A stretch of DNA of 54,756 nt from Promethearchaeota archaeon (GCA_048938105.1 JBHLMN010000029.1:1-54756), one strand, 5' to 3'. Shown: positions 8,565 to 52,799, counted from the stretch's first letter. Notes: generated from the letters alone by a model not told the origin. Translations and numbers: made by a program.

Positions 8565-8637
8565 CCGAACATAGAACCACAGCGTACAGACATCAGACCG
8601 CTCTTGCTTTAATTGAGGCTAACAACTTTCTAAGCTA
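8565..8637 (-). repeat. 23S-trailer repeat (A + degenerate B) overlapping the stop of 8630..9124
   Basis: tagaaccacagcgtacagacatcagaccg...aattgaggctaac. Confidence 0.8.
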
Positions 8638-9124
8638 TTTCCCTAAGCTTCTGTAAAATAACCCTAAGATCACTAAAATAATCAATCTGCTGATTTACAC
8701 CAGCTGATAGATAACCCTTCAGAGCTATCTGAACTGCTTCTTTCTGACTTATTAATGCTTTTGGGTGAAAGATAAATACAGAAGCATTCGGATTATGCTG
8801 AGAAAGGTGTTGTAGGGAGAGATCTAAAAAATATTTGGCTCGAGAAAGATCAGAGATGAGGATAGACTCTATAATGAAGACCATTGCTTTCACATAACTG
8901 AAAATCTCTTGCTGGACGAATTTTTCACTTTCAATTAATTCCAGAGATTCACTCTGACTCAAGGGGAATACCTTCTGTTGTTTCTTTCGTAACGATTCGA
9001 TCGGACTCAAGATTCGATTCAATAATTCAGAATTAGACTCGATCCTATCGTAATAAACCATCTTATTTGAAAATCCCAGAATAAGAATCCAATCTTCTAG
9101 AACTCCCATAATAATCGACTTCAT
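8630..9124 (-). CDS. degenerate Rag/Gtr-like small-GTPase-fold protein (no P-loop); paralog of 45735..46229
   Basis: IFSYVKAMVFII...AKYFLDLSLQHLSQHNPNASVFIF resembles the Rag-like core also seen in 16894..17472. Confidence 0.55.
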   Translation of the reverse strand: MKSIIMGVLEDWILILGFSNKMVYYDRIESNSELLNRILSPIESLRKKQQKVFPLSQSESLELIESEKFVQQEIFSYVKAMVFIIESILISDLSRAKYFLDLSLQHLSQHNPNASVFIFHPKALISQKEAVQIALKGYLSAGVNQQIDYFSDLRVILQKLREIA

Positions 9125-9165
9125 ATTTTATAACATAAAATCTCAAGAGCTTCCTGAAATATTCA

Positions 9166-9702
9166 TCAGACATTTTCTTCTTCACATTTAAGTACTTTTA
9201 ATACCAAATCGTGTAAAATGGTTTCAATAGTTTCTTTATCCGTTGGTTTGATCTCGTAATAAGATAAACCCAGCTCTTCAGCTAATGCCATCCCCTCTCC
9301 TTTCATTATTGTTTCGGAATTAGTAATAAATCCAACTAAAGCAATAGGAAAGGCAGCTTGAGGATGATGTTTTTTTAATTCTCTATACCAATCTCTCACA
9401 GCGTGAAAGGAGTTTTGGTCAACCTTTTCAAATGTAATTATTGCAGCAGAAGCACCCCGAAAATAACTCGGACGGAGCTTATCAAAAAACTCCTGTCCTA
9501 TGGTATCTACGAGAATGAGGTTAACCTCATTGTTGTTTACTTTAATCTGTTTAGTTATAATATCAACTCCCAGAGTGGGTAAATAGTTCGTTGTAAACTT
9601 CCCTTCTGCAAATCTCCTGATAAGTGAGGTTTTAAACTCAGTAGATCCCAGAACGCAAATTTTCAATAATTCTTCATACATTCCTTTCTTCTGGACAGAC
9701 AT
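9166..9702 (-). CDS. Rab-like small GTPase with degenerate G1/G4
   Basis: KICVLG, YLPTLGVD, DTIGQEFFDKLRPSYFRGASAAIITF; G1 lacks GKS, no NKxD. Confidence 0.85.
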   Translation of the reverse strand: MSVQKKGMYEELLKICVLGSTEFKTSLIRRFAEGKFTTNYLPTLGVDIITKQIKVNNNEVNLILVDTIGQEFFDKLRPSYFRGASAAIITFEKVDQNSFHAVRDWYRELKKHHPQAAFPIALVGFITNSETIMKGEGMALAEELGLSYYEIKPTDKETIETILHDLVLKVLKCEEENV

Positions 9703-9783
9703 CAGACCGAACGCTCTGTAATTGAAGATTTACACTCCTTAAACTACCTGACGATAGTTCCGCTTAATTTCCACACGGTTAAC
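9693..9783 (-). repeat. near-complete 23S-trailer repeat supplying the ATG of 9166..9702
   Basis: ggacagacatcagaccgaacg...ctgacgatagttccgcttaatttccacacggtta. Confidence 0.9.
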
Positions 9784-9805
9784 ACATTTCAGTATAACTC
9801 ATTTT

Positions 9806-10480
9806 TCATATTATATTGTTAATCTCTTTTAAAACCTCTTCGAGAGACTTCCCAGTTAATTCTTTATAGCGCCTGCCAACAATTTCAAGAGATGTCTTTA
9901 AATAGGTTAAATATTGTTGCTTTTCTGCTTCCGATCGAATTAATCGACCATCATAAAGATTTTTTCTCTCTAGTGATTCAATCACGCGTAGTCGTTTAAA
10001 TATCTCGTCTTTGAGAGAAGTAATGACTTCTTTCTTACTCAAACGAGATGGTTTCACCTCAGTCGTGAGAGATTCAATACTAACTTTACTCACGCCTTCG
10101 ATTTTCGCCAGTTCATATGTTAGCTGCTCTTGAGAGATTCTCAAGTCAGAAAGATCGATGTAAACCTCATAAGTACAACGATCTTGCATGAAACACACCC
10201 CTGTGCTATAAAGGGTTCTTGTTTTGTACCTGATTAAAATTATACCAAACTCTTGTAAAAAATCGGGAGACAATTCACCAATTTCTATAGTAGCCTTGAG
10301 AACGTCAGGACTTCGGGCAGGAATGATTTGAATGACTTTGGTCGAGGGAGTAAGGATCATCAAAGCATACTTTACCCCTCCATAGATGTCATCCTTAATG
10401 GGGAGTGCTACAGGATATTTCCCCAGAAGGTCAAAGGGTTCATGAAGCTGAATCATTTTTGCGATGGTAAGAGGAAACAT
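9806..10480 (-). CDS. hypothetical protein with probable ACT-like domain and C-terminal helical region
   Basis: LKATIEIGELSPDFLQE...YEVYID...LAKIEGVSKVSIE beta-alpha-beta pattern. Confidence 0.5.
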   Translation of the reverse strand: MFPLTIAKMIQLHEPFDLLGKYPVALPIKDDIYGGVKYALMILTPSTKVIQIIPARSPDVLKATIEIGELSPDFLQEFGIILIRYKTRTLYSTGVCFMQDRCTYEVYIDLSDLRISQEQLTYELAKIEGVSKVSIESLTTEVKPSRLSKKEVITSLKDEIFKRLRVIESLERKNLYDGRLIRSEAEKQQYLTYLKTSLEIVGRRYKELTGKSLEEVLKEINNII

Positions 10481-10616
10481 TATTCACCATCCGCTTTCTG
10501 TAATGTCATTGATTCCACAAAGAGAGCATTTCATTATCAAAAAGGATGTTTAAACTTCAGAGATTATATTTGAACAATGAATTAGCATATCACCTTAAAT
10601 ATCCTATCTATGTGTT

Positions 10617-10749
10617 CCGAAAATGGAAAAATAGCGGACAGACATCAGACCGAACGCCTTGATATTGAAATAAACGATTCTTTAAACTACATGACGATAG
10701 ATTTTTGGAAAAATCTTAATTTCCACAGTTTTTCTTAAAACTAGCCCTT
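10617..10749 (-). repeat. near-complete 23S-trailer repeat
   Basis: gcggacagacatcagaccgaacgcc...tgacgatagatttttggaaaaatcttaatttccacagtttttcttaaaactagccctt. Confidence 0.9.
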
Positions 10750-11072
10750 TATATCACCTAATAATTCTATGGCAATGCCGACAGATAATGAGACCTGGTA
10801 TAGCCTATATCCTGTTTGTTTTTTTCTTATCTTTCACAGCATACGAACTTGTTCGGACTCCCACGGTAATAATGAGCAAATCTTCAGTAGAAACCATATC
10901 TCTATAGCTTGGGCGAAAGTGGCCTAGTCCTGAATAATCCAGGTTGATTTTTGCTTTACATGAGGGGCAGTACAGATGATCCAGGTAAATAATTTGAGAC
11001 AAACTAGAATCCTCTCATGATACCTTAATTAAAGCTTTCTAAGGAGTACGAAAAGAATCAATATAAAAAATA

Positions 11073-11630
11073 TCAGACCATTGCTTGTTTAGCGGTGGAT
11101 TTATTCCCAGGTAGATTATGGGTTATCAAAGAAAGAAGGATTTTTCTAAAGCCTTTGAAATCTTCGGATTTTAGACCATAATAAAAATCAGGCGACCCTT
11201 GTTCACTCTGGATCGATTCCTCAATAATTAGGGAATCATTTGTATCTTGGATTTCTATAAATGCAACGGGAATATTGGGATCACGATTGATAAACCGAAA
11301 ATAGTGGTAGAACGCTCTTGCAGACTCAAAAGATTCAGCATCATTCTTTGAAAACAGAATAAGGGCCCCATTGGAACGAAAATAGTGCTGAACCATTTTA
11401 TCGAAGAATCCCTGGCCAATGGGTTGGACTAATATCAATTTCACCCAGCACTCATCAATAAATACCCTTAAAGTAGAAATACTGATAGAAATAGATTCAA
11501 AAGTATGATTAGTGGTCTGACCGTGATGGCTTTGAACCAGTTGGCGAATAAGTTGGCCTACTAATTCATCAGGATGACCTAATACGGAAATCCTAATAAT
11601 AAACTCGTTTTTGTGGCTATTAGGGTTCAC
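11073..11630 (-). CDS. highly degenerate Rab-like GTPase-fold protein
   Basis: IRISVLG, VKLILVQPIGQGFFDK...YFRSNGALILFSK; stop lies in a tcagacc module-A remnant. Confidence 0.65.
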   Translation of the reverse strand: MNPNSHKNEFIIRISVLGHPDELVGQLIRQLVQSHHGQTTNHTFESISISISTLRVFIDECWVKLILVQPIGQGFFDKMVQHYFRSNGALILFSKNDAESFESARAFYHYFRFINRDPNIPVAFIEIQDTNDSLIIEESIQSEQGSPDFYYGLKSEDFKGFRKILLSLITHNLPGNKSTAKQAMV

Positions 11631-11818
11631 GGTTTCCCTAGTAGTCCTAGGAAATCAGAATATAAATACCTGGTGAAATGCTCTGAAATCACATCGAAAT
11701 CGTATACATATTCAGGTGTGGAGACGATGCGATTAACACCTCATATTTTCGTGCGCATTAGAAAATATTGTCAGGATTCGGTGAGAAGGGTTAAAGAGAT
11801 CATATCTTAGGATGTTAA

Positions 11819-12373
11819 TCAGTTATCAGAATCTTGGTTTTTTAGTACAACCTCTAAAATCGCGAAATTGCGTTGATGAAGCAGGACTTGAGCTCCAGGA
11901 ACGAGGAGGTCACGAGGAATGGAGGAGTCAACAACAACCGCAAATAACGGACCAGTACTGGATTTTACGATTGCTTTGCCACTCTCGAGTAGTGAATGGA
12001 TCGTGCCAACAAATAAGGGTGGTTGGCGTAATTTGATTAACTCTACTTTGAGATTATCTCTTTCTTCTTCAAATTTATTCCGTTGGACTTCAAGTAATGC
12101 ACGTTCCGTTTCTAATGCACGGATTCTCTTTTCCATGGTACGGGTATAAGAGTCCTCAAACTCTGAAATATCTGGAAGGCTCGAAACAGCAAACATAAGG
12201 CAGGCTTTAATATCCTCGACGGTGACCGAGGGAGAGTACTTTTCCATAATGTCTTCAAAAGACTTTCGTTCAGCAAGTAACTGGAGGATGGCTGTTACCG
12301 TAATACGAGTGCCTCGAATATGCGGTTGACCATCGCGGATATTAGGATCAATGACTATGCGATCTAATGACAT
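11819..12373 (-). CDS. DUF433-domain protein fused to the coiled-coil/OB N-domain of proteasome-activating nucleotidase (no AAA domain)
   Basis: RIVIDPNIRDGQPHIRGTRITV...TVEDIKACL (DUF433); ELIKLRQPPLFVGTI...AIVKSSTGPLFAV...LVPGAQVLLHQRNFAILEV (PAN N-domain); probable start MSLD at 12373. Confidence 0.8.
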   Translation of the reverse strand: MSLDRIVIDPNIRDGQPHIRGTRITVTAILQLLAERKSFEDIMEKYSPSVTVEDIKACLMFAVSSLPDISEFEDSYTRTMEKRIRALETERALLEVQRNKFEEERDNLKVELIKLRQPPLFVGTIHSLLESGKAIVKSSTGPLFAVVVDSSIPRDLLVPGAQVLLHQRNFAILEVVLKNQDSDN

Positions 12374-12447
12374 TTTCAATCCCCATCTGAAGTAGGGGAT
12401 CAGGTCATTTACCATTATAAATAATTCTCTTTCTCTGAAAGCCCATT

Positions 12448-12578
12448 AAAACGTAAAAAAACATATAGAAGTCAGACCGATTGCCCTCTCCTTGAAAATA
12501 GTTGAAATTATTGACTCCTGAAGCCCCCTGACGATAGCGTGTGGGAAAAAGTTTAATTTCCACACGGTTAGCCCTTGT
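12448..12578 (-). repeat. near-complete 23S-trailer repeat (insertion variant)
   Basis: tcagaccgattgccct...ttgaaattattgactcctgaagccccctgacgatag...ttaatttccacacggttagcccttgt. Confidence 0.9.
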
Positions 12579-12700
12579 TGTTCAAATGAGTATCAAGAAA
12601 GAGGATTATCAGTGTATATTGTTCTGAAATCTTAAAGTTCCCTGAAGGATAGTAAAGACTTAAAAAAGTCCAAGAGAAGATTAACAATGGGAGAAGAATA

Positions 12701-14032
12701 ATGGGGCCTAAACAATCCCTCCTGACTTTAATCCTTTCATTCCTGATTTTTTCATTGATTCTTACTTCTTTCAGTACCTTTGCCAATCTCGACAAATCAC
12801 CACTCTCTATTGATAGCACAGTATCTTATAAATCTCATCCGTCCATCGTTATTGACAGTAATGATGATTTTGGTGTTACAGGATACAGCTTTAATGGTTC
12901 TGGTACTATTCATGATCCTTACATAATAGCTAATTATAATTTTATCTCCTCTTCCTCTTATTTAATTTATATAGAAAATACAGGCGTACATTTCAAAATT
13001 GTGAACAATATCTTTGATGGTGTTAATCTTTCGTTCGACGCAATATACTTAAACAATGTTTCAAATGGGAAAATCTGTAATAATAGGTTTAAGAACCATA
13101 ACCATGCTATTTCTCTAGAGAAAAGCACCAATATTCTAATACAGATGAATCATATAACTTCCTCGAATCGTGGAATCTATCTCTACCCTCAAAGCAGTCA
13201 TAATACCATCATTGATAATTTAATGCTTAATAATAATCATCACGGTATATTTTTGGAATCTGGTTCATCTTATAACATTTTACGAGGAAACAAAATAGAA
13301 ACTATCATTAATGGTTGTGGAATTTACATAACAAAAGCAAATCATAATAAAATTGATAATAATACAATACGCAGCACCTCAGCATCTACTATACATCTCG
13401 GGGATTGTGTGAATAATACAGTCTCCGCAAATAATGTTAGTGGGAATGGAATAGTAATTTCGCATTCTTCCTATCTTAAAATTTTATCAAACATCGTTAA
13501 GTTCACAGCCGAGGATCCAGAGGAGCCAGGTTATTCTGGTGCAATAGAAATATACATGAGTGATTACATTTATCTGTTCAATAATTATGTGTCTAATCGG
13601 CCGGGATGGCTCGATTGTTTTTACCTCTGTTTCGCCCACTACAATACTTTAGAAAATAATACATTGTATTGTAATGACTCCTATGGATTCAGTCTGTATC
13701 CTACAACCTCATATAATTCTATTAAAGGAAATAATATCTATGGAACAACAGATCCAGAGGTGACTTCATTCGCTAGGGATAAAGGTTTCTCAAACACTTT
13801 TTCAATGAATTATTGGGAAGGATTTACTGATCCAGACTTAGATGGAGATGGATTTGTGGATAATAATTATTATATTGATGGGGATGCTGGAAATTTCGAC
13901 CCTCTACCCCTCACTGAACCCAATTCTCACGATCTCTCCGACCCTACAATAATCTTTCCAAATGGGGGAGAAATTCTAAATGGAACAGTAATTGTCCAAT
14001 TAAACCTTTTAAAAACACCCAAGAATCTTTAA
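12701..14032 (+). CDS. secreted right-handed beta-helix (NosD/PbH1-like) protein, C-terminally truncated
   Basis: Signal peptide, GSGTxxDPYII, Asn-rich repeats, NYW...DLDGDGFVD; ends inside the PNGGE Ig-like domain that is complete in 28083..31616. Confidence 0.8.
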   Translation: MGPKQSLLTLILSFLIFSLILTSFSTFANLDKSPLSIDSTVSYKSHPSIVIDSNDDFGVTGYSFNGSGTIHDPYIIANYNFISSSSYLIYIENTGVHFKIVNNIFDGVNLSFDAIYLNNVSNGKICNNRFKNHNHAISLEKSTNILIQMNHITSSNRGIYLYPQSSHNTIIDNLMLNNNHHGIFLESGSSYNILRGNKIETIINGCGIYITKANHNKIDNNTIRSTSASTIHLGDCVNNTVSANNVSGNGIVISHSSYLKILSNIVKFTAEDPEEPGYSGAIEIYMSDYIYLFNNYVSNRPGWLDCFYLCFAHYNTLENNTLYCNDSYGFSLYPTTSYNSIKGNNIYGTTDPEVTSFARDKGFSNTFSMNYWEGFTDPDLDGDGFVDNNYYIDGDAGNFDPLPLTEPNSHDLSDPTIIFPNGGEILNGTVIVQLNLLKTPKNL

Positions 14033-14251
14033 GGGAAGGCTTGTAAGCTGTTCCTCAATTTTCATAACCAACAAGCTATAAAAGCTTCTAAGTTTTCGGA
14101 TAATCTCATTTTCATTGATCACTCTCTCCAATGGGAATCAGAAGATGTCTCATGCATCAACAATTATGTAGAAGCAAAGTAGGGAGATAATGAAATCGCT
14201 CATCAGTAATAATCTGAAGAAGAACTCCAATGAATGATAGTGAACTAAAAC

Positions 14252-14365
14252 ATGAAGAAAAACACCATTCGGATAAACAACCGAGAACCTGCGATTCTGA
14301 CAGCAGAGTTAACCTATTTAGGGTATCAGGTGGAAAATGTCCTGTTAGAGGCGGGAGATTTTGAA
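14252..14365 (+). pseudogene. N-terminal remnant of an ERCC4/XPF-type nuclease domain
   Basis: IRINNREPAILTAELTYLGYQVENVLLEAGDF resembles the I.D.RE...L..GD(Y/F) start of ERCC4; the ERK motif is absent and the rest of the ORF is unrelated. Confidence 0.45.
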
Positions 14366-14590
14366 GGAAAGACGAATTTCCTAAATCGTATATTTATTAT
14401 TTCCCCTATCCAAAAGTCCCCCCAGCCACTTGTGCAGAAGCAATTCCTAAAAAGAAAAAAAGATAGGCACCAGAGGATCCACATGATGACTTCGAGAAAC
14501 TTAGGAGGGAGAGATCCCCTATGAAATCAATCTTAGAATGGTTGAAAAAGGATGAGAAAGATTATATAGGCCTCAAACGGAGGAAGAATC

Positions 14591-15355
14591 ATGATAACGC
14601 TGCCAATACCCCCAATAGTAATGGTGATAATCTCACTTTTTGTAATAATAATTGGGTTTCTAATAGGTGTAACTGAACCCTATGCGGGTGTGGTTCTTGT
14701 ATTACTAGGACTACTCAATTTGATTATTAATATCCCAGGATCAGTACTACAATTCTGGAGGATATATAAGCAGTCGAAAACGGGAGAAAGAGCCTTTATT
14801 AAATCATATCAAACTCAGAGAAGAAAACTAGCAAAAACTCAATCTAGATTGACATATGGAATAAAAGAATTTGAAAAACAGAATTATGGTCGGGCGATAG
14901 AGGATTTCAAAGCAGTTCTAAAGGATAGCAGTTTAACAGGGAAAATGGAAATGGAGGTTTTAGGCTTGATTGCTCGGAGTTATTTACTTAAGAAAGATTG
15001 GACAGAAGCACTTAATTATGCTGATCAAGTATTTTCCCTCGGACTAGCAATGAAAGTGCACCCCTCCTATGAGAATTACTTAGTCCGAATCGAAAGTGCA
15101 TTAAAAACAACAGATTTACAAAAAGCCTATTCAACACTGATAGTAGCAAAAGAAAAGTTTGGATCAAAACCAGAATTGGAAAAAGTAGAAAGCCTACTAA
15201 CACCATACATGAGAGATATTGAAGGAAAGTTACCTCTCATCTGTCCCAAATGTGGGTTGGCTTATCAAAGAGGGAATGTCCCAGCATTTTGTTTTTCATG
15301 TAATGAAATACTCATAGACGGTGATGATCTAATAACATCCTTTGATGAAAACTAA
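14591..15355 (+). CDS. membrane-anchored TPR protein with C-terminal zinc ribbon
   Basis: 2 TMs, TPR-like helices, CPKCG...FCFSCN. Confidence 0.75.
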   Translation: MITLPIPPIVMVIISLFVIIIGFLIGVTEPYAGVVLVLLGLLNLIINIPGSVLQFWRIYKQSKTGERAFIKSYQTQRRKLAKTQSRLTYGIKEFEKQNYGRAIEDFKAVLKDSSLTGKMEMEVLGLIARSYLLKKDWTEALNYADQVFSLGLAMKVHPSYENYLVRIESALKTTDLQKAYSTLIVAKEKFGSKPELEKVESLLTPYMRDIEGKLPLICPKCGLAYQRGNVPAFCFSCNEILIDGDDLITSFDEN

Positions 15356-15687
15356 TATGTGAAGGAAAAGAACCCTTTACCAGCAATTCCAAGTTAAAAT
15401 ACTCTCGATCTTCCATGATGATCTTTTTGATATAGAAAAGAGTCTTACGAAGAGGATACCCCCTTGAATCATTGACATTTTTTATATCAAATGATGTAAT
15501 TTTTTTTTCCTATCATAAATATATACTCAAAATTACGATCTTCTTCAGACTGATAGGGATGGAAAAATGATTAATCAAGAATACCTGCAAGACTTATTAG
15601 AAGAACAGAAATTGTCTGAAAACCAGATTACGAATCTAAAGAATTTAATAAATAAGATCCAGACACAATTAGAAGAATTAGAAGGTC

Positions 15688-15972
15688 ATGAAAGTGAGTA
15701 GGAGTACAAACAAAATCCTCTATTATGTCAGGGATCATGAAACCACGAAACGGTTCTTCGATCCAAGACTGATAATCATCCCAGGAGGATATTTGCTGGT
15801 AATGATTCTATTAAGCCCAGATATATACGCTATTAGGGGGTTTCTGTATATTCTCGTCATAGAATGGCTGATTGTCTATGGAATAATTGTCCTAGAAAAA
15901 ATACAAACGATCATCAACCAGCAGGAGACAATCATTACCTTATTAGAAAAGAGAGGATATGATCAGGCGTAA
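15688..15972 (+). CDS. small membrane protein
   Basis: 94 aa, 2 TMs. Confidence 0.45.
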   Translation: MKVSRSTNKILYYVRDHETTKRFFDPRLIIIPGGYLLVMILLSPDIYAIRGFLYILVIEWLIVYGIIVLEKIQTIINQQETIITLLEKRGYDQA

Positions 15973-16143
15973 CATCGAACTACCTGCGTGATCCATGAGC
16001 TCATGGGCGGGTACACCAGCAAAATCGACTGGAAGAACAAATATTCATGCTTCGATGAACTCGGTAGGAAAATGGATTATGATAGCAAAATGTATAAAGA
16101 TGCAAGTTCTAGAAATACCTACAAATGAAAGAGGGAAGATTTA

Positions 16144-16842
16144 TTGAGTTCTGATATGTTGGACTTGTATCTAGGCCGAGGGCTGCGATTATATCGAACT
16201 CACAAGTATGAACAGGCTGCAATTACCTTTCAAAAAGTACTCAAACACACGACAGCCAATGATAACCCAAAAGGTATTATTTACGCCCTGCTGGCACTGG
16301 GTGATTGTAATTTCTATCTACTACATATTGAGGAGGCTATGACTAATTTCGAGAGAGCTCGTACAATCACAAAACAGATAAAAGACAAAAATACACAGGC
16401 ACTCTCTCAAGTAAATCTAGGAAAATGCTTACTCCTCAAAGGAGGACATAGCACTCAAGCACGATATTTACTGATGGAAGCAATCCAGATTTTCGATGAG
16501 CTTGAAGATGACTTGGGCTTGTTGTACGCCTATAGCATATCGGGAGCACTGGAAGTAATTCAAGGAAATAGGGAAGCAGCGAAAGAGTATTTTGAACGAG
16601 GATTAATTCAAGCTCAATTGGTAGGCAAAAAACAGCTCCAAGACTATTTTAATCGAAGACTGAAGGAAAAAAGAGGAGAAGAAATACCATTCCCATACAT
16701 CTACTACCATCCATACCCGATGGGCCCACCAGCAGCCAGTGCAGAAGACATCCTAAAACGAATCCCCTGTCCCTCCTGTCAGGAGATAGTGCCAGACGGG
16801 ACAAAAATCTGCCCATTCTGTGGATATCGGTTTGTAGAATAG
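16144..16842 (+). CDS. TPR protein with C-terminal zinc ribbon
   Basis: Several TPR repeats (ALLALGDCNF, SQVNLGKCLL), CPSC...CPFCG. Confidence 0.8.
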   Translation: MSSDMLDLYLGRGLRLYRTHKYEQAAITFQKVLKHTTANDNPKGIIYALLALGDCNFYLLHIEEAMTNFERARTITKQIKDKNTQALSQVNLGKCLLLKGGHSTQARYLLMEAIQIFDELEDDLGLLYAYSISGALEVIQGNREAAKEYFERGLIQAQLVGKKQLQDYFNRRLKEKRGEEIPFPYIYYHPYPMGPPAASAEDILKRIPCPSCQEIVPDGTKICPFCGYRFVE

Positions 16843-45582: not shown

Positions 45583-45742
45583 GAAAATTAGCCCTTGTGC
45601 GATTAGTAGGATCTAGGAGGAAGTTTTTTCACATGAGAAATTAAGAGCGATTTTAGAAAATTAATATCCTCTGAAACGCAACAACAGCAGACAGAAATCA
45701 GACCGCTCCTGCTTTAATTGAAGCTAACAACATTTTAAGCTA
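45583..45742 (-). repeat. two partial 23S-trailer repeats (D at 45583-45610; A+degenerate B at 45672-45742)
   Basis: aaattagcccttgtgcgattagt; cagcagacagaaatcagaccg...aattgaagctaac. Confidence 0.8.
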
Positions 45743-46229
45743 TTTCCCTAAGCTTTTGTAAAATTTCTTTAACATTACTGAAATAATCAATCTGCTGAGT
45801 TACACCCGTTGATAGATAGCCTTTCAGAGTTTTCTGAATTACCTCTTTCTGACTTATTGATACCTGATTTGCTTTTGGGTGAAAGATAAAAACAGAAGCA
45901 TTCGGACTATACTGAGAAAGGCATTGTAGGGAGAGATCTAAACAATATTTTGCTCGAGAAAGATCGGAGATGATGATTGACTCTATAATGAAGACTAATG
46001 CTTTCACATAACTAAAAATCTCTCGTTTAACAAATTTCTCACTTTCAAGCAATTCCAGAGATTCACTATGACTTAATGGATAGAGCTTCCTTCTTAATAA
46101 GTCGATCCGTCTCAAGATCCGATTTATTAATTCAGAATTAGCCTCGATCCTATCGTAATAAACCATCTTTTCTGAAAATCCCAGAATAAGAATTCTATCT
46201 TCTTTAACTCCCATAACAATCAGCTTCAT
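45735..46229 (-). CDS. degenerate Rag/Gtr-like fold protein; paralog of 8630..9124
   Basis: Very similar sequence and same repeat context. Confidence 0.6.
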   Translation of the reverse strand: MKLIVMGVKEDRILILGFSEKMVYYDRIEANSELINRILRRIDLLRRKLYPLSHSESLELLESEKFVKREIFSYVKALVFIIESIIISDLSRAKYCLDLSLQCLSQYSPNASVFIFHPKANQVSISQKEVIQKTLKGYLSTGVTQQIDYFSNVKEILQKLREIA

Positions 46230-46234
46230 GGTTC

Positions 46235-46358
46235 CCGAAAATAACGGAACAGCGTACAGACATCAGACTGAATGCCCTGAAATTGAAAATAATTGAAATT
46301 ATTGACTCCTTAAGCTATCTGACGATAGGACTACTTAATTTCCACAGTATTTTAAAAC
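46235..46358 (-). repeat. near-complete 23S-trailer repeat attached to a 23S fragment
   Basis: cagcgtacagacatcagactgaatgccctg...gacgataggactacttaatttccacag. Confidence 0.95.
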
Positions 46359-46678
46359 TAGCCCTTGTGCGATTAGTGGCCGCTCGCTGAGCATGTCGGT
46401 CGAAACCTCCACGCTTGCATGACGGCTCTATCAACGGGATCTTCTATCCCAGCACTCGTTCACTCGCTCACGGTTACCGTCGCCAGCCCCCGTGTCATAC
46501 TGACGCGAGCAAAGCGGATCTGTCTTTTCGAGGGGCGCTTCGTACTTAGATGCATTCAGCACTTATCGCGTGGCGGTCGGGCGATACCCTTCCGGATAAC
46601 CCGTAGACTTGAGGCGCCTACATCCCGTTCCTCTTGTAATGAGAGCGTGTTCCTCTCACAGATCCAACACGTCCTATA
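46359..46678 (-). pseudogene. 23S rRNA 3'-terminal fragment (~320 nt), decayed
   Basis: Aligns to 53943-54270; 7-nt deletion and a mutated sarcin-ricin loop; ends at cgtcctata. Confidence 0.95.
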
Positions 46679-46684
46679 CTTGCT

Positions 46685-47563
46685 TTAACTTACTGTCAAA
46701 CTTTCCAAACTCGGATAAATTTGTTGTCCTTCAATGTATCTTTCGTGGAAGTCCGTTGGAACAAAAATATTCCATCTTTCATCACGATACACTTTCTCAA
46801 GTACATTACGATTTACTAAATATACAGGAGAACCATCATTAACCCAATCTCGGAGTTCATTTAAAAGATCCATGGAATTGGACAGTGTTCCAACAGATGA
46901 AAAGACTTCAAGTAGGTATCCAACTCTTCCAACTAATGATTTCTTCTTGAAAAGATTTAATTCCAACAATTCAATGACCTCATTGAGATCATTCGGCCTG
47001 AATTCCATGGTTAGTAAATACAGTGCACGAATCATTTCAGCCCAACCTCCAACAAGTTGAGGTCGATTGATGATTTCAATCAGAGTTCTAGCTGGGGAGC
47101 TTACAATGACTTCTTCTTCTTGATATTTCACCTTCCGCAGCCCATAGATGAAATCACTAGACATTGTGGCATTAATAGTATATTTAGGGTTACTTTCAGG
47201 CAAATTAAATGAGCTAAAGTAATCTTGCTTTTGTACAGATACAATATAACTAGAATAGATAACTGGAGCTGCTCCCCACATCTCTAATGCTGATGTGTAA
47301 CCAAGGTAGTAAGGATCACGGAGCCGTGACGCCATAATGATCATATCAGGCAATGAATCAGGATTTTCAACATCAACAATTGAATATAAACCTTTTCGAT
47401 GTCGAAGGATGTGACCATGCTGCAATAGGTAACGTAGATAAGTTTTATATAAATAACGGCTATTATCGATTCCTAATTGGTCTTTAGCAAATCGTTGTAG
47501 CTCTTTTACGGTCACAGATTTTCTTTTTTGGATATACGATAGTAATACTAACAAATTTTTCAT
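46685..47563 (-). CDS. AbiEi-like type IV TA antitoxin / wHTH regulator
   Basis: N-terminal wHTH (GHILRHRKGLYSI), YLGYTSALEMWG, SSPARTLIE, RVGYLLE, DERWNI. Confidence 0.8.
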   Translation of the reverse strand: MKNLLVLLSYIQKRKSVTVKELQRFAKDQLGIDNSRYLYKTYLRYLLQHGHILRHRKGLYSIVDVENPDSLPDMIIMASRLRDPYYLGYTSALEMWGAAPVIYSSYIVSVQKQDYFSSFNLPESNPKYTINATMSSDFIYGLRKVKYQEEEVIVSSPARTLIEIINRPQLVGGWAEMIRALYLLTMEFRPNDLNEVIELLELNLFKKKSLVGRVGYLLEVFSSVGTLSNSMDLLNELRDWVNDGSPVYLVNRNVLEKVYRDERWNIFVPTDFHERYIEGQQIYPSLESLTVS

Positions 47564-47670
47564 TTATTGCACTCAGTTAAATTAATATCCAATATCTTTA
47601 AAAAGTTTTACCTTGTACTGCAACAATCAAAAATATCAAATTGAATATGACCTTAAATTTTCAATAATAT

Positions 47671-48612
47671 TTGGAACTATCTTTAATGAGACTAAGTATG
47701 AAATTAGAAAATGAAGGATATAATAACGCAATAATTCAGAAAGTATATCGAATAGCTGATGTATTAGAGTTAATCAGCAAGAATTATTTTTTGAAAAATC
47801 GTTTGGCTTTTACTGGTGGCACTGCTTTAAATTTTGTCATTTTTCCAAAAATTGAAAGACTTTCTGTTGATTTAGATTTTGATTTTCGTGAAATTGATTC
47901 AAAAAATGACTGGGGAAAAACAAGGGATATGGTTGATTCCAATATAAAAGGGATTTTGAGAGATCTAGAGTATGAAGATGATGACATCAGGATTGATGCA
48001 AAATATCCTCTAACACGCTTTATAGTGAAATATGAGCTGAGAACATCATTTAACATTGAAATAGGGTATTTAAATCGATATTCACTTTTTACTTCAGATG
48101 AAACTAAGAATTTTATTCATCCGAAGACTGGAAAAGCGTTTAAAATACTTATTCCAAGAATAGAAGAAATTTCAGCAGGAAAGTGTTCAGCATTAATTTC
48201 ACGGAGAATTCCTAGAGATCTCTTTGACACAGCAATAATCGCCAAACTACAATTTAGTAGAAAATTGCTGCGAAAAGCTCTAATATTGAAAAATATGATG
48301 AATCTAAGCTATAATATTACTACTCTTAATTTTTCGACTCATCTCGGGAATATAAGACTTGATGATAACCTTAAAGTTGTATTAGGGGATTTTTTTTCAA
48401 AGGAAACCTTTAGAAATTATCGGAAAACAGCTATCGATTTCTTGAATCAGTTGCAGATGGAATTTACAGAGAAGGAAAAGGATTGTCTTTCAGCCTTTAT
48501 AAATGACCAGGAATTGAATATTGGTTTATTAGGAAAGAGAGAGATGTTCCATCCACAAATTGCCAAGCATCCTAATATTCTTTGGTCTTTAGAAAAAATG
48601 AAAGGAACTTAA
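47671..48612 (+). CDS. AbiEii-family nucleotidyltransferase toxin
   Basis: LAFTGGTALN...RLSVDLDF, EEISAGKCSALISRRIPRDLFD. Confidence 0.9.
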   Translation: MELSLMRLSMKLENEGYNNAIIQKVYRIADVLELISKNYFLKNRLAFTGGTALNFVIFPKIERLSVDLDFDFREIDSKNDWGKTRDMVDSNIKGILRDLEYEDDDIRIDAKYPLTRFIVKYELRTSFNIEIGYLNRYSLFTSDETKNFIHPKTGKAFKILIPRIEEISAGKCSALISRRIPRDLFDTAIIAKLQFSRKLLRKALILKNMMNLSYNITTLNFSTHLGNIRLDDNLKVVLGDFFSKETFRNYRKTAIDFLNQLQMEFTEKEKDCLSAFINDQELNIGLLGKREMFHPQIAKHPNILWSLEKMKGT

Positions 48613-48652
48613 AATTCTGATCTTTGAGTTAGTGTTAGATCCTAAGATAACG

Positions 48653-49192
48653 CTAATCCCTGTCCCAACACGCGAGAGTTCGGATTATGTTTTGCACAAC
48701 TTTCCGAGCTAAATTGTGAAAAATTCCCTCAATGGTTGCTTTATCGGTGGGTGTGGTCTCATAATAAGGAACATTCAGCTCCTCGGCTAAACCTTGACCT
48801 TCAAACGATGTTATTTCCTCTGAGTCGGAAATAAATCCGACTAAAGCAATAGGAAAGGTGGCTTGGGGAAGATGTTTTTTTAATTCGTTAAACCAATCTT
48901 TCACATTGTGAAAGGAGTTTCTGTTAACCTTTTCAAACGTAATAATTGCAGCAGAAGCACCACGAAAATAACTCGAACGGAGCTTGCCAAAAAACTCCTG
49001 TCCTATGGTATCTACAAGAACTAGGTGAACATTGAAGTCGTTAACTTTAATCTGTTTAGTTGTAATGTCAACTCCCAGAGTAGGCAAATGACTTGTTGTA
49101 AATTTGCCTCCAACAAATGTATTAACCATTTTTGTTTTCAACTCCCGAGCTGATCCCATAATGCAGATTTTTATAAAATACTCATCAGGCAT
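48653..49192 (-). CDS. Rab-like small GTPase with chimeric C-terminus
   Basis: HLPTLGVD, DTIGQEFFGKLRSSYFRGASAAII; tail QNIIRTLACW matches 39824-39855. Confidence 0.85.
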   Translation of the reverse strand: MPDEYFIKICIMGSARELKTKMVNTFVGGKFTTSHLPTLGVDITTKQIKVNDFNVHLVLVDTIGQEFFGKLRSSYFRGASAAIITFEKVNRNSFHNVKDWFNELKKHLPQATFPIALVGFISDSEEITSFEGQGLAEELNVPYYETTPTDKATIEGIFHNLARKVVQNIIRTLACWDRD

Positions 49193-49286
49193 TTATTTAT
49201 CCCCACACTTCCATCTTCTCTAACGGGTTCCACTTTTAATAGATTATTAAATTGTTATTGTGAGATTCCTCCGATCCACGCAATAA

Positions 49287-49310
49287 CACACAGACACCAG
49301 ACCGACTGCC
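49287..49310 (-). repeat. partial 23S-trailer repeat (module A)
   Basis: cacagacaccagaccgactgccc. Confidence 0.6.
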
Positions 49311-49501
49311 CGGAAACCGAATCTCCTTGGAAAAATTGTTTTATTTTCGGAAAAAAAATGAAATACAGGATCGTTAATTCAAAATTAGATACTTTCATAA
49401 TAATGATTAGTGTAAGTAAAAAGATACATCCTGGGAATAATATAAATCGTAATATACTGAAAGGAAGAAAAAATCCAGTCCTAGCCAAAATGTATGGAAC
49501 T

Positions 49502-50557
49502 CTAGTAGAATTTCTTTCTACCTTTTTTTACTGAAATTGTAACTATAGTGATACCAAGTAAAAGGAAGAAAATGTTATAGCCACTAGTAATTTCATCATT
49601 ATTAATAGATTGTGCAAGATCTAAAGTCCAAACATAAGCATAGTAATTTCCTGGGGCATCTCGAAGTCCTATTGAAAAAACAGTTTGATCAAGACAAACA
49701 AGTGAATTGGCGAAAAAACCTCCTTTGTAATCGGGGTTGACTGGTATGATATCTTCGTACAGCAACGATTCCCAACTATTCCAAGTGTTTTTAGATACAT
49801 CAAAAATTGAGGTGTGCGTAACATTGGATACAATGATTTGATCGTCTCCCTTAGTTGTTGAACCACACTGGTGATATTCATAATCATTAGCTTTCATATA
49901 CTCCCATTCATCCGTGAGGGGATTGTACCTCTCAACACTTGTTGTTACATTGATAAATCCCCAACCTGTATATCCTCCTATCACATATAAATAGCCTCCA
50001 ATTCCTACCATTTCATGCATCCTTCGACTAGTACCCATTGGACTTACTGTCCACCATGTATCATTCTTAGGATTATATGCTTCAACTTTAGTTATAGCCA
50101 TTGAAGTTCCGCTCAACCAACCACCAGATACATAAAGAATATCATTAACAGCAGCAACGGCAACATCTAGACGATTAGTCGGTGGACGAGTGAAAGTACT
50201 AATGGAATCTTTAGTGATATCATAAATCTTAGACTTCTCACCAGACCATCCATGTATTATATAGATTTTATCTCCAATTAGGGCGCTTCCTCCCCGATAA
50301 GAACGGTAACCCAAACCAGTTTCCTTAATTCTAATCCAATTCCCTCTTTCAGGATCGTATTCTTGGACAGAATATTGACCAACAAAGTAGATCTTGTCAT
50401 TATAGACATAAGCATGTCCAGTTTCATTAATAACTAGCGGTGACCCCTCTACCCACTTCAAACCAGATGTCATAATAAGACATAAGGCCTTTTCTTGAGA
50501 GTAATGAAACGAAAATGTACAAGTAACTATTAGCCATAAAACAAAAAATTTCCTCAT
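49502..50557 (-). CDS. secreted/anchored Kelch-repeat protein
   Basis: LYVSGG...VEAYNPKNDTW, LYVIGG...VERYNPLTDEW; signal peptide and C-terminal TM. Confidence 0.9.
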   Translation of the reverse strand: MRKFFVLWLIVTCTFSFHYSQEKALCLIMTSGLKWVEGSPLVINETGHAYVYNDKIYFVGQYSVQEYDPERGNWIRIKETGLGYRSYRGGSALIGDKIYIIHGWSGEKSKIYDITKDSISTFTRPPTNRLDVAVAAVNDILYVSGGWLSGTSMAITKVEAYNPKNDTWWTVSPMGTSRRMHEMVGIGGYLYVIGGYTGWGFINVTTSVERYNPLTDEWEYMKANDYEYHQCGSTTKGDDQIIVSNVTHTSIFDVSKNTWNSWESLLYEDIIPVNPDYKGGFFANSLVCLDQTVFSIGLRDAPGNYYAYVWTLDLAQSINNDEITSGYNIFFLLLGITIVTISVKKGRKKFY

Positions 50558-50706
50558 TGAGTTTCCCCAAGTTTGATATGTCCTTTTTGTGTTAATAAAG
50601 TATTGGAAGGAGCAATTTTCCTAAATTTAGAATGATTATTTTCCTATCTTTTTGAAGTTGATGGTTCTCATTCTAATATATTCATTCACTTCCTGGAAAT
50701 TAAAAA

Positions 50707-50801
50707 CCAGACATCAGACCGAACGCCCTGTAATTGAAGCTAACGACTCCTGAAGCTACCTGACGATAGGACTACTTAATTTCCACACGGTTAGCCCTTG
50801 T
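50707..50801 (-). repeat. near-complete 23S-trailer repeat
   Basis: cagacatcagaccgaacgccctg...ctgacgataggactacttaatttccacacggttagcccttgt. Confidence 0.95.
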
Positions 50802-51041
50802 ACAGTTAGGCCAGGAGGACTTGGTTTGTTATTTTTTAACACTAATTAAAATATAAAAGGATAACCACGCACGAAATGAAGGGAAATGAAAACAAATGAA
50901 ATTATCCAGAAAAGGCATACAGACCTTAGAAAAAGCCATCCTTCCAGGTTTTGGGGTTTCTCTCTTCAAGCATTTCTGTACCTCGGTTGGCTTTATATAT
51001 TCAAAAAGGACATTCTTTGGACAAAGAAGGTAGAATAAAAA

Positions 51042-52016
51042 ATGCTGACTGAAGAAAAATACTGGGATCAACTAGCACCAACATGGGACAAGAAAATTAC
51101 TTCTAAACGAAATCCTCATTATCATTATTATCATACGATTGATTTGCTAGTCATTCAGCTTCTACAGGAAACCAAGGCAAAGAAAGCTCTAGAAATAGGC
51201 TGTGGTACGGCTGGCTGTGCCATTAATGTTCTCAAAACTCTGAAAAGGGACAATATTCATATAACGGGGATTGATATCTCAAAAAAGATGATAAAGTTTG
51301 GAAGAGAAAAGATCAAGAAGGCGAATCTAGAAGATAAAATTTCACTAGAGGTGGGGAATGCTACTGATCTTCCATTCCAAGATAAAGAATTTGATATGGT
51401 CTTTAGTCGAGGAGGAGTTCTCAGTTATACGACAGAACCTTCAAAACTTCTGCAACAAATAAAGAGAGTCCTTTGTATTGGAGGGGTTATTGGTTTAGAT
51501 GTAATTCCAAAACCTCCAAAAGGCAAAGATTATTACATTGGGAAAATTAGTGACAGTCCTTCTAATAAAGAAGTATTTCAGGTAGAGTCAACAAGTCTTA
51601 TGTATGAAGAATTCTATACAGATGGTTTTGTTCAAGTTGCTCGCAAATACCATGTAAAATCTGACGCAAATCTATACAATGAATTACAGACACTTTTTCA
51701 GAAACTCCCTTCGAGCTTACCAGGAATTCTACAACCTCCTATACATCTAAAAGAAGCCCAATTGATCAGTGATAGAAGTGTTACTCTCTATAGTATTAAT
51801 AAAATACAGGAAAAAATGACTGAAGTAGGATTTCAGATAACTGATGTCTATGGTACTGGATATGCAAATTTAATGAGCAAAAACAGCGAAATATTCGAAT
51901 TTGTTACTGCCAATCGTGATAAATTCAGTCGGATAGAAATAATTCTTCATAAAGTACTCTGTCTTGATTCTGCATCTATGCTTTTCATAACAGGAAAAAA
52001 ATGTGAGAAGTGTTAA
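51042..52016 (+). CDS. class I SAM-dependent methyltransferase
   Basis: ALEIGCGTAG, GIDISKKMI, GNATDLPFQDKEFD, RVLCIGG. Confidence 0.9.
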   Translation: MLTEEKYWDQLAPTWDKKITSKRNPHYHYYHTIDLLVIQLLQETKAKKALEIGCGTAGCAINVLKTLKRDNIHITGIDISKKMIKFGREKIKKANLEDKISLEVGNATDLPFQDKEFDMVFSRGGVLSYTTEPSKLLQQIKRVLCIGGVIGLDVIPKPPKGKDYYIGKISDSPSNKEVFQVESTSLMYEEFYTDGFVQVARKYHVKSDANLYNELQTLFQKLPSSLPGILQPPIHLKEAQLISDRSVTLYSINKIQEKMTEVGFQITDVYGTGYANLMSKNSEIFEFVTANRDKFSRIEIILHKVLCLDSASMLFITGKKCEKC

Positions 52017-52051
52017 GTTCAAGCATAAAAAGAATCTTTGAAAATAATCCT

Positions 52052-52178
52052 CTGAAACGCTAGAAAAAAAGCGTATAGACATCAGACCGAACGCCCTGAC
52101 ATTGAAGATAATTGAGAGTATTGACTCCTGAAGCCAACTGACGATAAATTTTAGGAAAAATCTTAATTTCCACAATTT
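52052..52178 (-). repeat. near-complete 23S-trailer repeat (insertion variant)
   Basis: gcgtatagacatcagaccgaacgccctg...ttgactcctgaagccaactgacgata...ttaatttccacaa. Confidence 0.95.
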
Positions 52179-52196
52179 GTAAAAAAGGAGCTACAA

Positions 52197-52799
52197 TTAA
52201 GTTTGGCCAGTTTTTATAGCTAATACTCTTGCCGCTAAATCCTCAAAGATTTTCGCAATAGTTTCTTTGTCAGTTAGTTTGGTTTCATAATAGAAGAACT
52301 TCAACTCCTCGGCTAAATTCTGTCCCTCTAAGGTTGTTATTTCCTCTGAGTTGGTGATGAAACCAATTAAAAAAATAGGAATAACAACATCTGAGGATTC
52401 ATATTCTTCTACTTCTTCTTCTGGAAATAAGCGAGGATGTCTTCGCATTATCAGCAGTGATTTCGTTTTATTGGGTTTAAGGTGACGTTTAACTTCCATA
52501 TAGAAATCTTTAGCTGCTTTAAAGGAGTTCCTATCGCCCTTATCAAAAGTAATGATAGCAGCAGAAGCACCTTGATAGCTTGGTTGTTCTAAAGCATCTA
52601 CAAGAGCTAGTTTAACCTTATTGTTGTTTACTCTAATCTGTTTAGTTGTAATGTCAATTCCCAGAGTGGGTAAATAGTCTGTTGTAAATTTCTCTCCAGC
52701 AAAAGTGCGAACCATTCTTGTTTTTAACTCTCGAGCTGCCCCCATAATGCAGATTTTCATGAAATATTCATCAGGCATTGTCTTATTCCCACATATCAA
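52197..52799 (-). CDS. Rab-like small GTPase, degenerate, with internal insertion
   Basis: KICIMG, YLPTLGID, YQGASAAIITFD; likely start MPDEY at 52778. Confidence 0.85.
   Translation of the reverse strand: MICGNKTMPDEYFMKICIMGAARELKTRMVRTFAGEKFTTDYLPTLGIDITTKQIRVNNNKVKLALVDALEQPSYQGASAAIITFDKGDRNSFKAAKDFYMEVKRHLKPNKTKSLLIMRRHPRLFPEEEVEEYESSDVVIPIFLIGFITNSEEITTLEGQNLAEELKFFYYETKLTDKETIAKIFEDLAARVLAIKTGQT

Follow-up and report, generated by a model that had tools for sequence, protein, structure and literature searches.

In an Asgard archaeon of the Heimdall group (Hodarchaeales type), eleven degenerate small-GTPase genes are concentrated among repeats that lie downstream of the 23S rRNA gene, and with moderate confidence we favor the view that they encode pseudo-GTPases maintained by selection, which would bind partner proteins without a nucleotide switch and which are clustered in an array of rRNA trailer repeats. 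The window is a contig of 54,756 nucleotides (GCA_048938105.1 JBHLMN010000029.1:1-54756) from a metagenome-assembled genome with 7% contamination. As an earlier note on this DNA had listed, it holds eight Rab-like and three Rag-like open reading frames together with two remnants. In the text the genes are named by their first coordinate.

6681..53938, minus strand: array of the interspersed repeat REP, about 85-105 nt, 21 detected copies
8630..9124, minus strand: predicted short Rag-derived pseudo-GTPase, 164 aa (Pfam Gtr1_RagA, E 3e-4)
9166..9702, minus strand: predicted Rab-like pseudo-GTPase, group A (Pfam Ras, E 3.5e-32; motif table; tree)
11073..11630, minus strand: predicted Rab-like pseudo-GTPase, group C (Pfam Ras, E 9.5e-5; own-genome profile, E 1.8e-34)
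16894..17472, plus strand: Rag-like G domain, 192 aa (Pfam Gtr1_RagA, E 2.8e-25)
21258..21734, minus strand: highly divergent, C-terminally truncated Rab-like frame, 158 aa (Pfam Ras, E 5e-6)
21822..21902, minus strand: remnant, final 26 codons of a group-B gene (translation agrees with the C-terminal ends of 40839 and 41431), with repeat module C after it
31842..31991, minus strand: remnant, final 50 codons of a group-B-like gene (hmmsearch, E 8.6e-7), immediately upstream of a repeat copy; as DNA repeat D17 it has 78% identity to 40860-41003
40839..41381, minus strand: predicted Rab-like pseudo-GTPase, group B (Pfam Ras, E 2e-13)
41431..41967, minus strand: predicted Rab-like pseudo-GTPase, group B, in tandem with 40839 (Pfam Ras, E 3.5e-11)
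42127..42624, minus strand: predicted divergent Rab-like pseudo-GTPase (Pfam Ras, E 7e-7; own-genome profile, E 1.4e-27)
45735..46229, minus strand: predicted short Rag-derived pseudo-GTPase, paralog of 8630 with 78% identity (Pfam Gtr1_RagA, E 3.9e-7)
48653..49192, minus strand: predicted Rab-like pseudo-GTPase, group A (Pfam Ras, E 2.7e-34)
52197..52799, minus strand: predicted Rab-like pseudo-GTPase, group A (Pfam Ras, E 1.4e-19)
53937..54756, minus strand: 3′ end of the 23S rRNA gene (Rfam LSU_rRNA_archaea)

The family assignments made from sequence alone in the earlier note were borne out by profile searches. All eight Rab-like frames match the Pfam Ras profile (PF00071) above its cut-off, with E values from 3e-34 to 1e-4. 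Gtr1_RagA (PF04670) matches 16894 and 45735, and 8630 reaches 20.7 bits against a curated cut-off of 22; the remote matches of the Rag-like genes are canonical Rag-like proteins. By regular-expression scan and profile alignment GxxxxGK[ST] is absent from 11 of 11 genes, and NKxD occurs in 16894 alone (as NKWD), both as claimed. G4 ([NT]KxD) and G5 (SAK) were not found in the Rab-like genes, being replaced by, for example, FITx/xPT in group A and IGL in group B. Group A retains only the K-T of the P-loop motif, plus the switch I threonine and DxxGQ, whereas in groups B to D and the short Rag-like genes the P-loop Lys/Thr, the switch I threonine and the DxxGQ ligands are all absent.

The individual genes differ in how far they have departed from the canonical form. 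Both 9166 (G1 = GSTEFKT, with a P-loop shortened by one residue; NKxD replaced by FITN) and 48653 (G1 = GSARELKT; FISD) retain LPTLGVD and DTIGQE, the switch sequences reported previously, while 52197 has lost part of switch II (DALEQ) and gained about 25 aa by insertion. In 40839 the P-loop has become CCPDELLT, DTAGQ has become DIST and GNKxD has become IGL; homologs from other assemblies, several named Hodarchaeales, are 46-71% identical and carry the same replaced motifs. In 11073, which has paralogs elsewhere in the genome (C63_7694, C35_68484 and C65_424), the P-loop reads GHPDELVG and DxxGQ reads QPIGQ, and in 42127 none of G1, G3 and G4 is recognizable. The Pfam Ras match of 21258 covers profile positions 40-123 only, another profile matches it at 4-130 of 175, and its branch length in the tree is 3.6; this gene is probably decaying. 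Among the Rag-like genes, 8630 lacks G1-G3 and has HPKA for HKxD, its C-terminal two thirds being alignable to canonical Rag-like proteins, and 16894 has lost the P-loop lysine (GLTLAGVS) and has DLGNQ at G3. None of the three has a C-terminal roadblock domain: at 164-192 aa the chain stops with the G domain, against about 300 aa in related canonical Rag-like proteins. The short form has about four relatives in public data.

Structure prediction indicates that the fold has survived. The model of 48653 (pLDDT 88.6) adopts the Rab/Ras fold and superposes on Rab, Ras and RIT1 structures with TM about 0.8. That of 45735 (pLDDT 77.8) has a Rag-type G-domain core, and its best PDB matches are the G domains of Gtr1/RagA/RagC (3r7w, 6s6a; E 9e-5).

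The clustering of these genes is marked. The contig makes up 0.94% of the genome, yet carries 11 of its 101 GTPase-type frames where 0.95 would be expected (binomial P = 3.5e-9), confirming the concentration that had been proposed. The frames without a P-loop account for all of it (11 of 23 on the contig, against 0 of 78 canonical ones; Fisher P = 8.5e-9). The second-densest 55-kb window of the genome has six GTPase-type frames, all canonical. Ten of the 11 genes lie on the minus (rRNA) strand, 16894 being the exception, and for nine of them the closest repeat module is no more than about 110 nt away, in agreement with what had been described; for 11073 the distance is 345 nt, and around 16894 there is no module for 3.7 kb.

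In the phylogeny all eight Rab-like genes fall into one degenerate clade (69 rows, SH-aLRT 98), although where the long-branched groups C and D attach within the tree is uncertain. The clade has as its neighbor one canonical Asgard Rab-like orthogroup, of which the genome has its own canonical copy (C52:423315-423851, with GSGSVGKT, NKKD and SAK). Its basal members have G1 (GxxxxGK[ST]) and have lost G4 and G5. Within group B, 41431 is an older paralog of 40839 and not its sister, since the two are in different subclades, 40839 together with P0126/P0127. The sources of the wider clade include genomes named Hodarchaeales, Heimdallarchaeota and Thorarchaeota. The idea that the array was the birthplace of the degenerate forms therefore fails for the Rab-like genes, which belong to an older and wider clade; it is also countered by the finding that half of the degenerate copies of the genome lie outside any array.

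Conservation was compared position by position between 44 degenerate and 70 canonical proteins. In the degenerate set the P-loop K19/T20, the switch I sequence LPTLGVDITTK and DTxGQEFFGKLRPxYYRGASA are kept at 80-100%, with K19, T20, T38, D61, G64 and Q65 at 82-93%; G15, V17, G18, N120, K121, D123 and S150/A151 are lost. The losses are thus limited to positions of nucleotide contact (P-loop glycines, NKxD and SAK), and switch I, the interswitch and switch II are conserved as well as in the canonical proteins.

These observations suggest a pathway. The eight Rab-like genes would have descended from one canonical Asgard Rab-like orthogroup, losing the base-recognition motifs (NKxD, SAK) before the P-loop glycines; groups B to D would also have given up the P-loop Lys/Thr and DxxG. 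The G-domain fold persists, and in group A so does the whole switch I/interswitch/switch II face. The three Rag-like genes are G domains lacking the roadblock dimerization domain, with degenerate G1 to G3. Such proteins would cease to cycle with GTP, and through the retained switch-side surface might constitutively bind the partners (regulators or effectors) of canonical Rab-like or Rag-like GTPases, acting as adaptors or competitors. The genes sit in an apparently recombination-prone array of pre-23S trailer copies, which recurs across the genus and in which they undergo duplication, truncation and recombination. The earlier suggestion of nucleotide-independent adaptors or decoys fits the lost nucleotide contacts and preserved switch surfaces. 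It fits group A less well, as this group keeps the Lys/Thr, the switch I threonine and DxxGQ; with these residues (K, T, T, D, G, Q) its full set of ligands for phosphate and Mg2+ is in place, and it may bind nucleotide.

The repeat itself duplicates the 3′ trailer from the processing stem of pre-23S rRNA, the first copy following immediately after the 23S 3′ end. Twenty copies are on the minus strand and one, partial, on the plus strand, and there are additional partial copies adjoining the ends of genes. In the rest of the genome REP is rare: nhmmer finds 21 copies here, four at the end of C18 and two elsewhere. Copies, 300 nt long, of the 3′ end of the 23S gene are displaced to 27759-28068 and 46367-46669, and the 5′ part of the 23S gene is on C9:31-1435. 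REP arrays of constant orientation are present in 11 of 20 genomes of the same genus; being relatives within one genus, these are non-independent samples. GTPase-like frames inside the arrays of other genomes lack G1 in 10 of 10 cases; close to one of these arrays, but not within it, there is a pair of canonical Rag genes. Among 244 frames of array cargo the degenerate Rab-like proteins are the largest family (19 members in six genomes), and the group-B genes found are inside arrays in seven of seven cases.

Could the array simply be a recombination hot spot in which duplicated GTPase genes are becoming pseudogenes, their open frames being merely young? Some copies do decay: 21258 is truncated, two others are reduced to remnants, 52197 has its switch II deletion, and the 3′ end of 48653 is chimeric, with a 32-bp stretch identical to 39824-39855. 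The rates of substitution bear on this directly. In four paralog pairs dN/dS is 0.34-0.55 with the bootstrap confidence interval below 1, and not near 1 as plain decay would have it; the values are 0.55 (0.37-0.79) for 40839/41431, 0.37 for 45735 against 8630 and 0.34 for 52197 against 48653. This is several-fold above the canonical paralogs (about 0.06-0.3), so constraint has been relaxed, but all four pairs are significantly below 1. Moreover, in this AT-rich DNA all eleven frames are intact over 158-200 aa, and group-B homologs from other assemblies have new motifs in common (CxPDxLLT, DIST, FAFSK). The losses are also non-random, sparing the switch regions. We consider plain decay distinctly unlikely, and the balance tips toward genes held by selection as pseudo-GTPases. 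Of the proposal that the array amplifies and diversifies these genes, the recent duplication within it (dS 0.3-0.8 for array pairs, where canonical paralogs are saturated) and the turnover seen in the remnants, the truncated copy and the chimeric end stand; an origin of the forms in the array does not.

The retention of ligands in group A raises another interpretation, that these proteins (9166, 48653, C37_97825 and relatives) are NTPases of altered specificity, which, guanine recognition being lost, would still bind a phosphate-bearing ligand through the retained residues and switch with ATP or another nucleotide. The phosphate and Mg2+ ligands persist while only base contacts and P-loop glycines change, and the basal members of the clade have an intact G1 without G4 and G5. 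However, the glycine before the P-loop lysine has become leucine and the equivalent of Ras G12 has become proline. Such replacements of glycine in the Ras P-loop should disturb the cradling of phosphate. The one-residue loop deletion in 9166 also argues against this interpretation, which is inapplicable to groups B to D and the short Rag-like genes without any ligand residue, and we regard it as unlikely. A further alternative is that the genes are cargo of mobile or defense-type cassettes on an integron- or island-like platform, their role being in a conflict system or for the element itself and not in host cell biology; they might, for instance, disturb GTPase signaling of the host or of viruses. 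REP keeps its orientation at spacings of 0.6-12.7 kb whatever that of the genes, AbiEi/AbiEii, PIN and HNH genes are present in the array, related genomes have such arrays with their contents reshuffled, and clusters of attC sites are reported to be enriched in Asgard MAGs (PMC9668308). On the other hand, six REP copies fold as single-stranded DNA no better than shuffled sequences (z -1.1 to +0.2), nor does the repeat do better as RNA, for which RNAalifold gives −3 kcal/mol with zero covariation in the alignment, so REP is not attC-like. No tyrosine recombinase was found in the neighborhood of the arrays examined or on this contig (C8, which stops within the 23S gene, so that a recombinase gene beyond the rRNA would fall outside it), the PF00589 matches in G000, G009 and G011 being far from arrays. 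A copy of an rRNA trailer is no obvious att site, and half of the degenerate GTPases of the genome lie outside arrays. We judge cassette cargo very unlikely. An integron or CALIN array is itself not supported, as REP forms no attC-type hairpin and no integron integrase was found beside the examined arrays; the likeness to archaeal integron arrays (PMC9668308) lies in same-orientation repeats between short gene units, toxin-antitoxin cargo and paralogous cassettes. We can offer only as a doubtful proposal that REP arrays are an undescribed, non-integron gene-cassette platform of this Hodarchaeales genus, with the trailer copy as junction element, capturing, duplicating and shuffling, as preferred cargo, beta-helix surface proteins together with pseudo-GTPases of Rab and Rag origin. 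If true, this would be a dedicated diversification system for signaling modules derived from eukaryotic signature proteins, in the archaeal lineage closest to eukaryotes.

Returning to selected pseudo-GTPases, the nearest parallels are the eukaryotic pseudoGTPases CENP-M, the pG1 and pG2 domains of p190RhoGAP and the Rnd proteins (reviewed in PMC10211241). The G-domain fold, loss of motifs and retention of the gene by selection that characterize the class were all found here, and from their sequences the array proteins look like an archaeal counterpart. The eukaryotic proteins serve as protein-binding or scaffold modules and not as GTP switches, while the array proteins, known from sequence and models, are archaeal, stand-alone, of 160-200 aa and clustered in a repeat array. 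Starting from one Rab-like orthogroup they also make up a graded series, in which group A has switch I and II almost unchanged. A literature search found no paper with both 'pseudoGTPase' and 'Asgard'.

Compared with canonical Asgard Rab-like (RasL) proteins, for which Thorarchaeota and MK-D1 Rab structures exist (PMC10933270), identity is about 50-54% for 9166 and 48653 and 41% for 52197. The N-terminus MPDEY..KIC, the switch and interswitch regions, a RabF4-like YYRGA and the predicted fold are held in common; the differences are those of the nucleotide-contact motifs described above. With Rag/Gtr proteins (3r7w, 6s6a) the G-domain core is alignable from beta4 onward in 8630, 45735 and 16894. 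In Vargova et al. (bioRxiv 10.1101/2024.02.28.582541), Asgard members of the Ras superfamily labeled 'divergent / unannotated' were set aside; they are described there as fast-evolving derivatives that may be pseudogenes, or as groups particular to certain taxa and still to be studied. The array genes are probably of the same kind, but here they resolve into a single clade in which motifs were lost in order, with signs of purifying selection and a defined place in the genome.

An earlier note had placed eleven small-GTPase-like genes in this window, and an open reading frame is present at all eleven positions, frames and start codons being set by a mechanical rule. Eight of these (9166, 11073, 21258, 40839, 41431, 42127, 48653 and 52197, named by start coordinate) are Rab-like and match the Pfam Ras family. 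Gtr1_RagA is matched by the Rag-like 16894 and 45735, and just under the cut-off by 8630; the roadblock domain, by which Rag GTPases dimerize, is absent from all three. The loss of the nucleotide-binding motifs is as described before: the P-loop GxxxxGK[ST] occurs in 0 of 11, and NKxD is found in 16894 alone. All but 16894 share the strand of the rRNA (10 of 11). Most were said to abut an interspersed repeat, and for nine of the 11 a repeat module lies no more than about 110 nt from the start or stop. The two remnants are also real, 21822-21902 coding for the final 26 residues of a group-B gene (the group of 40839 and 41431) and 31842-31991 for a 50-residue C-terminal piece. Gene 21258, and perhaps 52197, are probably decaying copies.

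The window takes up all 54,756 nt of contig C8, which has a GC content of 37.5%, close to the 35.1% of its genome, a metagenome-assembled genome of 5.85 Mb in 65 contigs with completeness of 99% and contamination of 7%. Related proteins carry the source names Hodarchaeales or Heimdallarchaeota. In the window, Rfam matched rRNA pieces only and ARAGORN found no tRNA. The 23S rRNA gene is divided between two contigs, and C8 is thus the DNA downstream of the rRNA gene:

End of C8, minus strand: 3′ part of the 23S rRNA gene (rRNA model match)
Start of contig C9: 5′ part of the 23S rRNA gene, split from the portion on C8

The degenerate genes are strongly concentrated here. An iterative profile search of all open reading frames of at least 90 amino acids, with the two short Rag-like genes added, gave 101 GTPase-type frames in the genome. 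C8 is 0.94% of the genome yet carries 11 of these, where 0.95 would be expected (P = 3.5e-9). Of the 23 frames genome-wide that lack the P-loop motif it holds 11, and of the 78 canonical frames 0 (Fisher P = 8.5e-9). No other 55-kb window exceeds six GTPase-type frames, and the six in the runner-up are all canonical; an equal density of such genes across the genome, which the earlier note had named as a refutation, is thereby excluded. About eleven further degenerate copies are dispersed on other contigs, and no repeat module lies within 3 kb of the 11 degenerate GTPase genes located there.

We estimated selection on paralogous pairs by the pairwise Nei-Gojobori method, with codon bootstrap confidence intervals.

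Selection on pairs of array copies (ω, with 95% confidence interval)
8630 / 45735: 0.37 (0.21-0.58)
48653 / 9166: 0.34 (0.22-0.51)
48653 / 52197: 0.34 (0.21-0.51)
40839 / 41431: 0.55 (0.37-0.79)

A ratio near 1 with no expression had been named as the mark of plain decay; the values of 0.34-0.55 all have intervals below 1. The synonymous divergence of these pairs is 0.3-0.8, whereas in canonical paralog pairs of this genome synonymous sites are saturated and ω is about 0.06-0.3. The copies in the array are therefore duplicates of recent origin, on which purifying selection acts in relaxed form.

The nearest canonical relative of the Rab-like genes lies in the same genome (contig C52, 423315-423851, with GSGSVGKT, NKKD and SAK), and is 52-54% identical to 48653 and 9166. 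A database search with 48653 brought up dozens of similarly degenerate proteins beside many canonical members of the orthogroup; Hodarchaeales, Heimdallarchaeota, Thorarchaeota and Promethearchaeota are among the source names of the degenerate ones. In a tree obtained by a quick search, with SH-aLRT as its sole support, the degenerate proteins, including all Rab-like genes of the window, form one clade (69 rows, SH-aLRT 98) adjoining a short-branched canonical group; 11073, 42127 and 21258, on long branches, are less securely placed. Basal members of the clade have the P-loop and have lost NKxD and SAK. Four rows scored as degenerate that fall outside it are canonical sequences truncated at the N-terminus. 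The tree indicates that the degenerate clade derives from one identifiable canonical Rab-like protein. Group A (9166, 48653 and 52197) clusters together, and its members are thus recent duplicates within the array. Group B has homologs in other assemblies at 46-71% identity with common new conserved motifs, and group C comprises 11073 and five dispersed paralogs with an hPDELh motif where the P-loop would be. The suggestion that the array is a nursery for such genes holds insofar as it duplicates them and turns them over, but the degenerate clade predates the array and reaches beyond it.

Which positions were lost? We compared 44 degenerate with 70 canonical proteins position by position in a single alignment. 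Retention is 80-100% for the Lys and Thr of the P-loop, all of switch I (LPTLGVDITTK), the strands of the interswitch, and switch II together with helix 2 (DTxGQEFFGKLRPxYYRGASA). The P-loop glycines are replaced by Pro and Leu, NKxD by FITx and SAK by xPT; in groups B to D the Lys/Thr and DxxG have gone as well. It is by the switch side that small GTPases meet their regulators and effectors. The pattern of loss in the alignment is not one of random decay: nucleotide contacts have been removed and this face has been spared.

Structure prediction gave a confident model of 48653 (built with an alignment; pLDDT 88.6, pTM 0.86), with low confidence only in switch I and switch II, that resembles Rab, Ras and RIT1 structures with a TM score of about 0.8. 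The model of 45735 is moderate (pLDDT 77.8); across about 100 residues it is closest in the PDB to the Gtr1, RagA and RagC G domains, and its N-terminal third is predicted to be remodeled. In an exhaustive sequence search, residues 69-151 of 45735 are 40-46% identical to canonical Rag-like proteins of 300 amino acids, and the short Rag-like form has very few close relatives. PDB 9mey is among the fold matches of 48653, and directly upstream of this gene is

49502-50557, same strand as 48653: Kelch-repeat beta-propeller gene

This is one instance only of a Kelch gene beside a Rab-like gene. Eukaryotic LZTR1 binds RIT1/RAS through its Kelch domain.

Taking together the G-domain fold, the absence of the nucleotide motifs and the retention of the genes by selection, we conclude from sequences and models that the window genes are probably pseudo-GTPases, as the term is applied in eukaryotes to CENP-M or the pG domains of p190RhoGAP (PMC10211241). 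For group A there is a real alternative, that these proteins might be nucleotide switches of altered specificity; they keep all the ligands of the phosphates and Mg2+. If the proteins are pseudo-GTPases, their most likely action would be for the retained switch side to bind constitutively the partners of canonical Rab-like and Rag-like proteins.

Among the papers searched, none pairs the term pseudoGTPase with Asgard, and the two that pair it with archaea review pseudoenzymes in general. In a large survey of Asgard GTPases such sequences were set aside as divergent or possibly pseudogenes (bioRxiv 10.1101/2024.02.28.582541). Pseudo-GTPases as such are already known, and an array of rRNA-trailer copies may be the more unusual element. 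No other family of eukaryotic-signature proteins in Asgard archaea is as large as the small GTPases, whose roles there are largely obscure. A whole clade without nucleotide contacts, in which the switch face appears still to be under selection, would make the question of their role partly testable, and descent from a single canonical ancestor would let each pseudo-switch be matched with a switch in biochemistry and in the search for partners. If this is confirmed, pseudo-GTPases would extend beyond eukaryotes. Their tie to arrays of rRNA-trailer copies also points to an unusual route of gene-family expansion in this lineage.

The repeat is built of three conserved modules, with a middle part that varies. 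Copies found by nhmmer number 21 on C8 (20 in minus orientation), four at the end of contig C18 and two elsewhere. The first abuts the 3′ end of 23S, and several others carry 20-300 nt of that end. The copy following 23S (53854-53938) can base-pair, leaving bulges, with about 45 nt of the 5′ leader of 23S (C9, 1436-1650), the local alignment score being 28 against 16.9 ± 2.4 for shuffled sequences. By this complementarity, the repeat copies the 3′ strand of the pre-23S processing stem. A structured RNA or attC-like site was rejected because the repeat folds no better than shuffled sequence and has no covariation, and 5S rRNA was ruled out by the presence of about 20 copies, the lack of an Rfam match and the complementarity to the 23S leader.

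The final 300 nt of 23S recur as displaced copies at 27759-28068 and 46367-46669. Both begin at model position 2721, about 15 nt past the stop of the preceding gene, and each is followed by a repeat copy. Short pieces of the 23S tail lie beside repeats in two other genomes (G003 and G009) too. Several pseudo-GTPase genes have their final codons and stop (e.g., ..KGQSV-stop) encoded by module C of the repeat, at 40809-40879, 41401-41471, 45668-45738 and 8563-8633; this module contains TGATG, in which a stop and an ATG overlap.

The repeat was found in 11 of 20 genomes of the same genus versus 0 of 19 from other genera, relatives that are not independent and many of them fragmented. All ten GTPase-like frames in the arrays of five other genomes lack the P-loop motif, and immediately outside one such array there is a canonical Rag pair. 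Of 244 array frames in six genomes, 19 are degenerate Rab-like genes, the largest cargo family and represented in all 6; NosD-type beta-helix proteins come second, with 11 members spread over 5 genomes. All seven group-B genes from a class-wide search are inside arrays; a group-B homolog of another genome adjoins a NosD/beta-helix gene. One genome (G009, CP070695.1, loci L010-L013) is listed as a single 4.9-Mb contig, yet contains 100-N gaps, several beside repeat copies, and as a scaffold is unusable as a closed array reference; the LSU model matched no 23S in it.

Recombination in C8 shows in both remnants, in the truncation of 21258 and in a shared stretch of 32 bp. This stretch, at the 3′ end of 48653 (48663-48694), is the exact reverse complement of 39824-39855, inside an unrelated wHTH gene 9 kb away, and indicates recent illegitimate recombination. 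No tyrosine recombinase was found near the repeat arrays, the Phage_integrase matches all being far off. Aloposons, which integrate at tRNA genes and carry giant genes (PMC8813620), were considered as a counterpart and are not comparable.

Other genes of the window are as follows:

12701-14032 and 28083-31616: NosD/beta-helix surface-type proteins, also at loci L009-L021 of other genomes
46685-48612 and 43966-44424: AbiEi/AbiEii toxin-antitoxin pair and PIN-domain gene, inside the array
21925-24765 and 34714-36513: two large frames with 141-nt (47-aa) tandem repeats, 13 and 6 copies, of higher GC
11819-12415: small protein with DUF433 and the OB domain of the proteasomal ATPase PAN, without the ATPase part

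The two large frames are likely to encode repeat-rich surface proteins. The Rag-like 45735 and the Rab-like 48653 have the AbiE pair between them, whereas 8630 and 9166, their respective paralogs, are next to each other.
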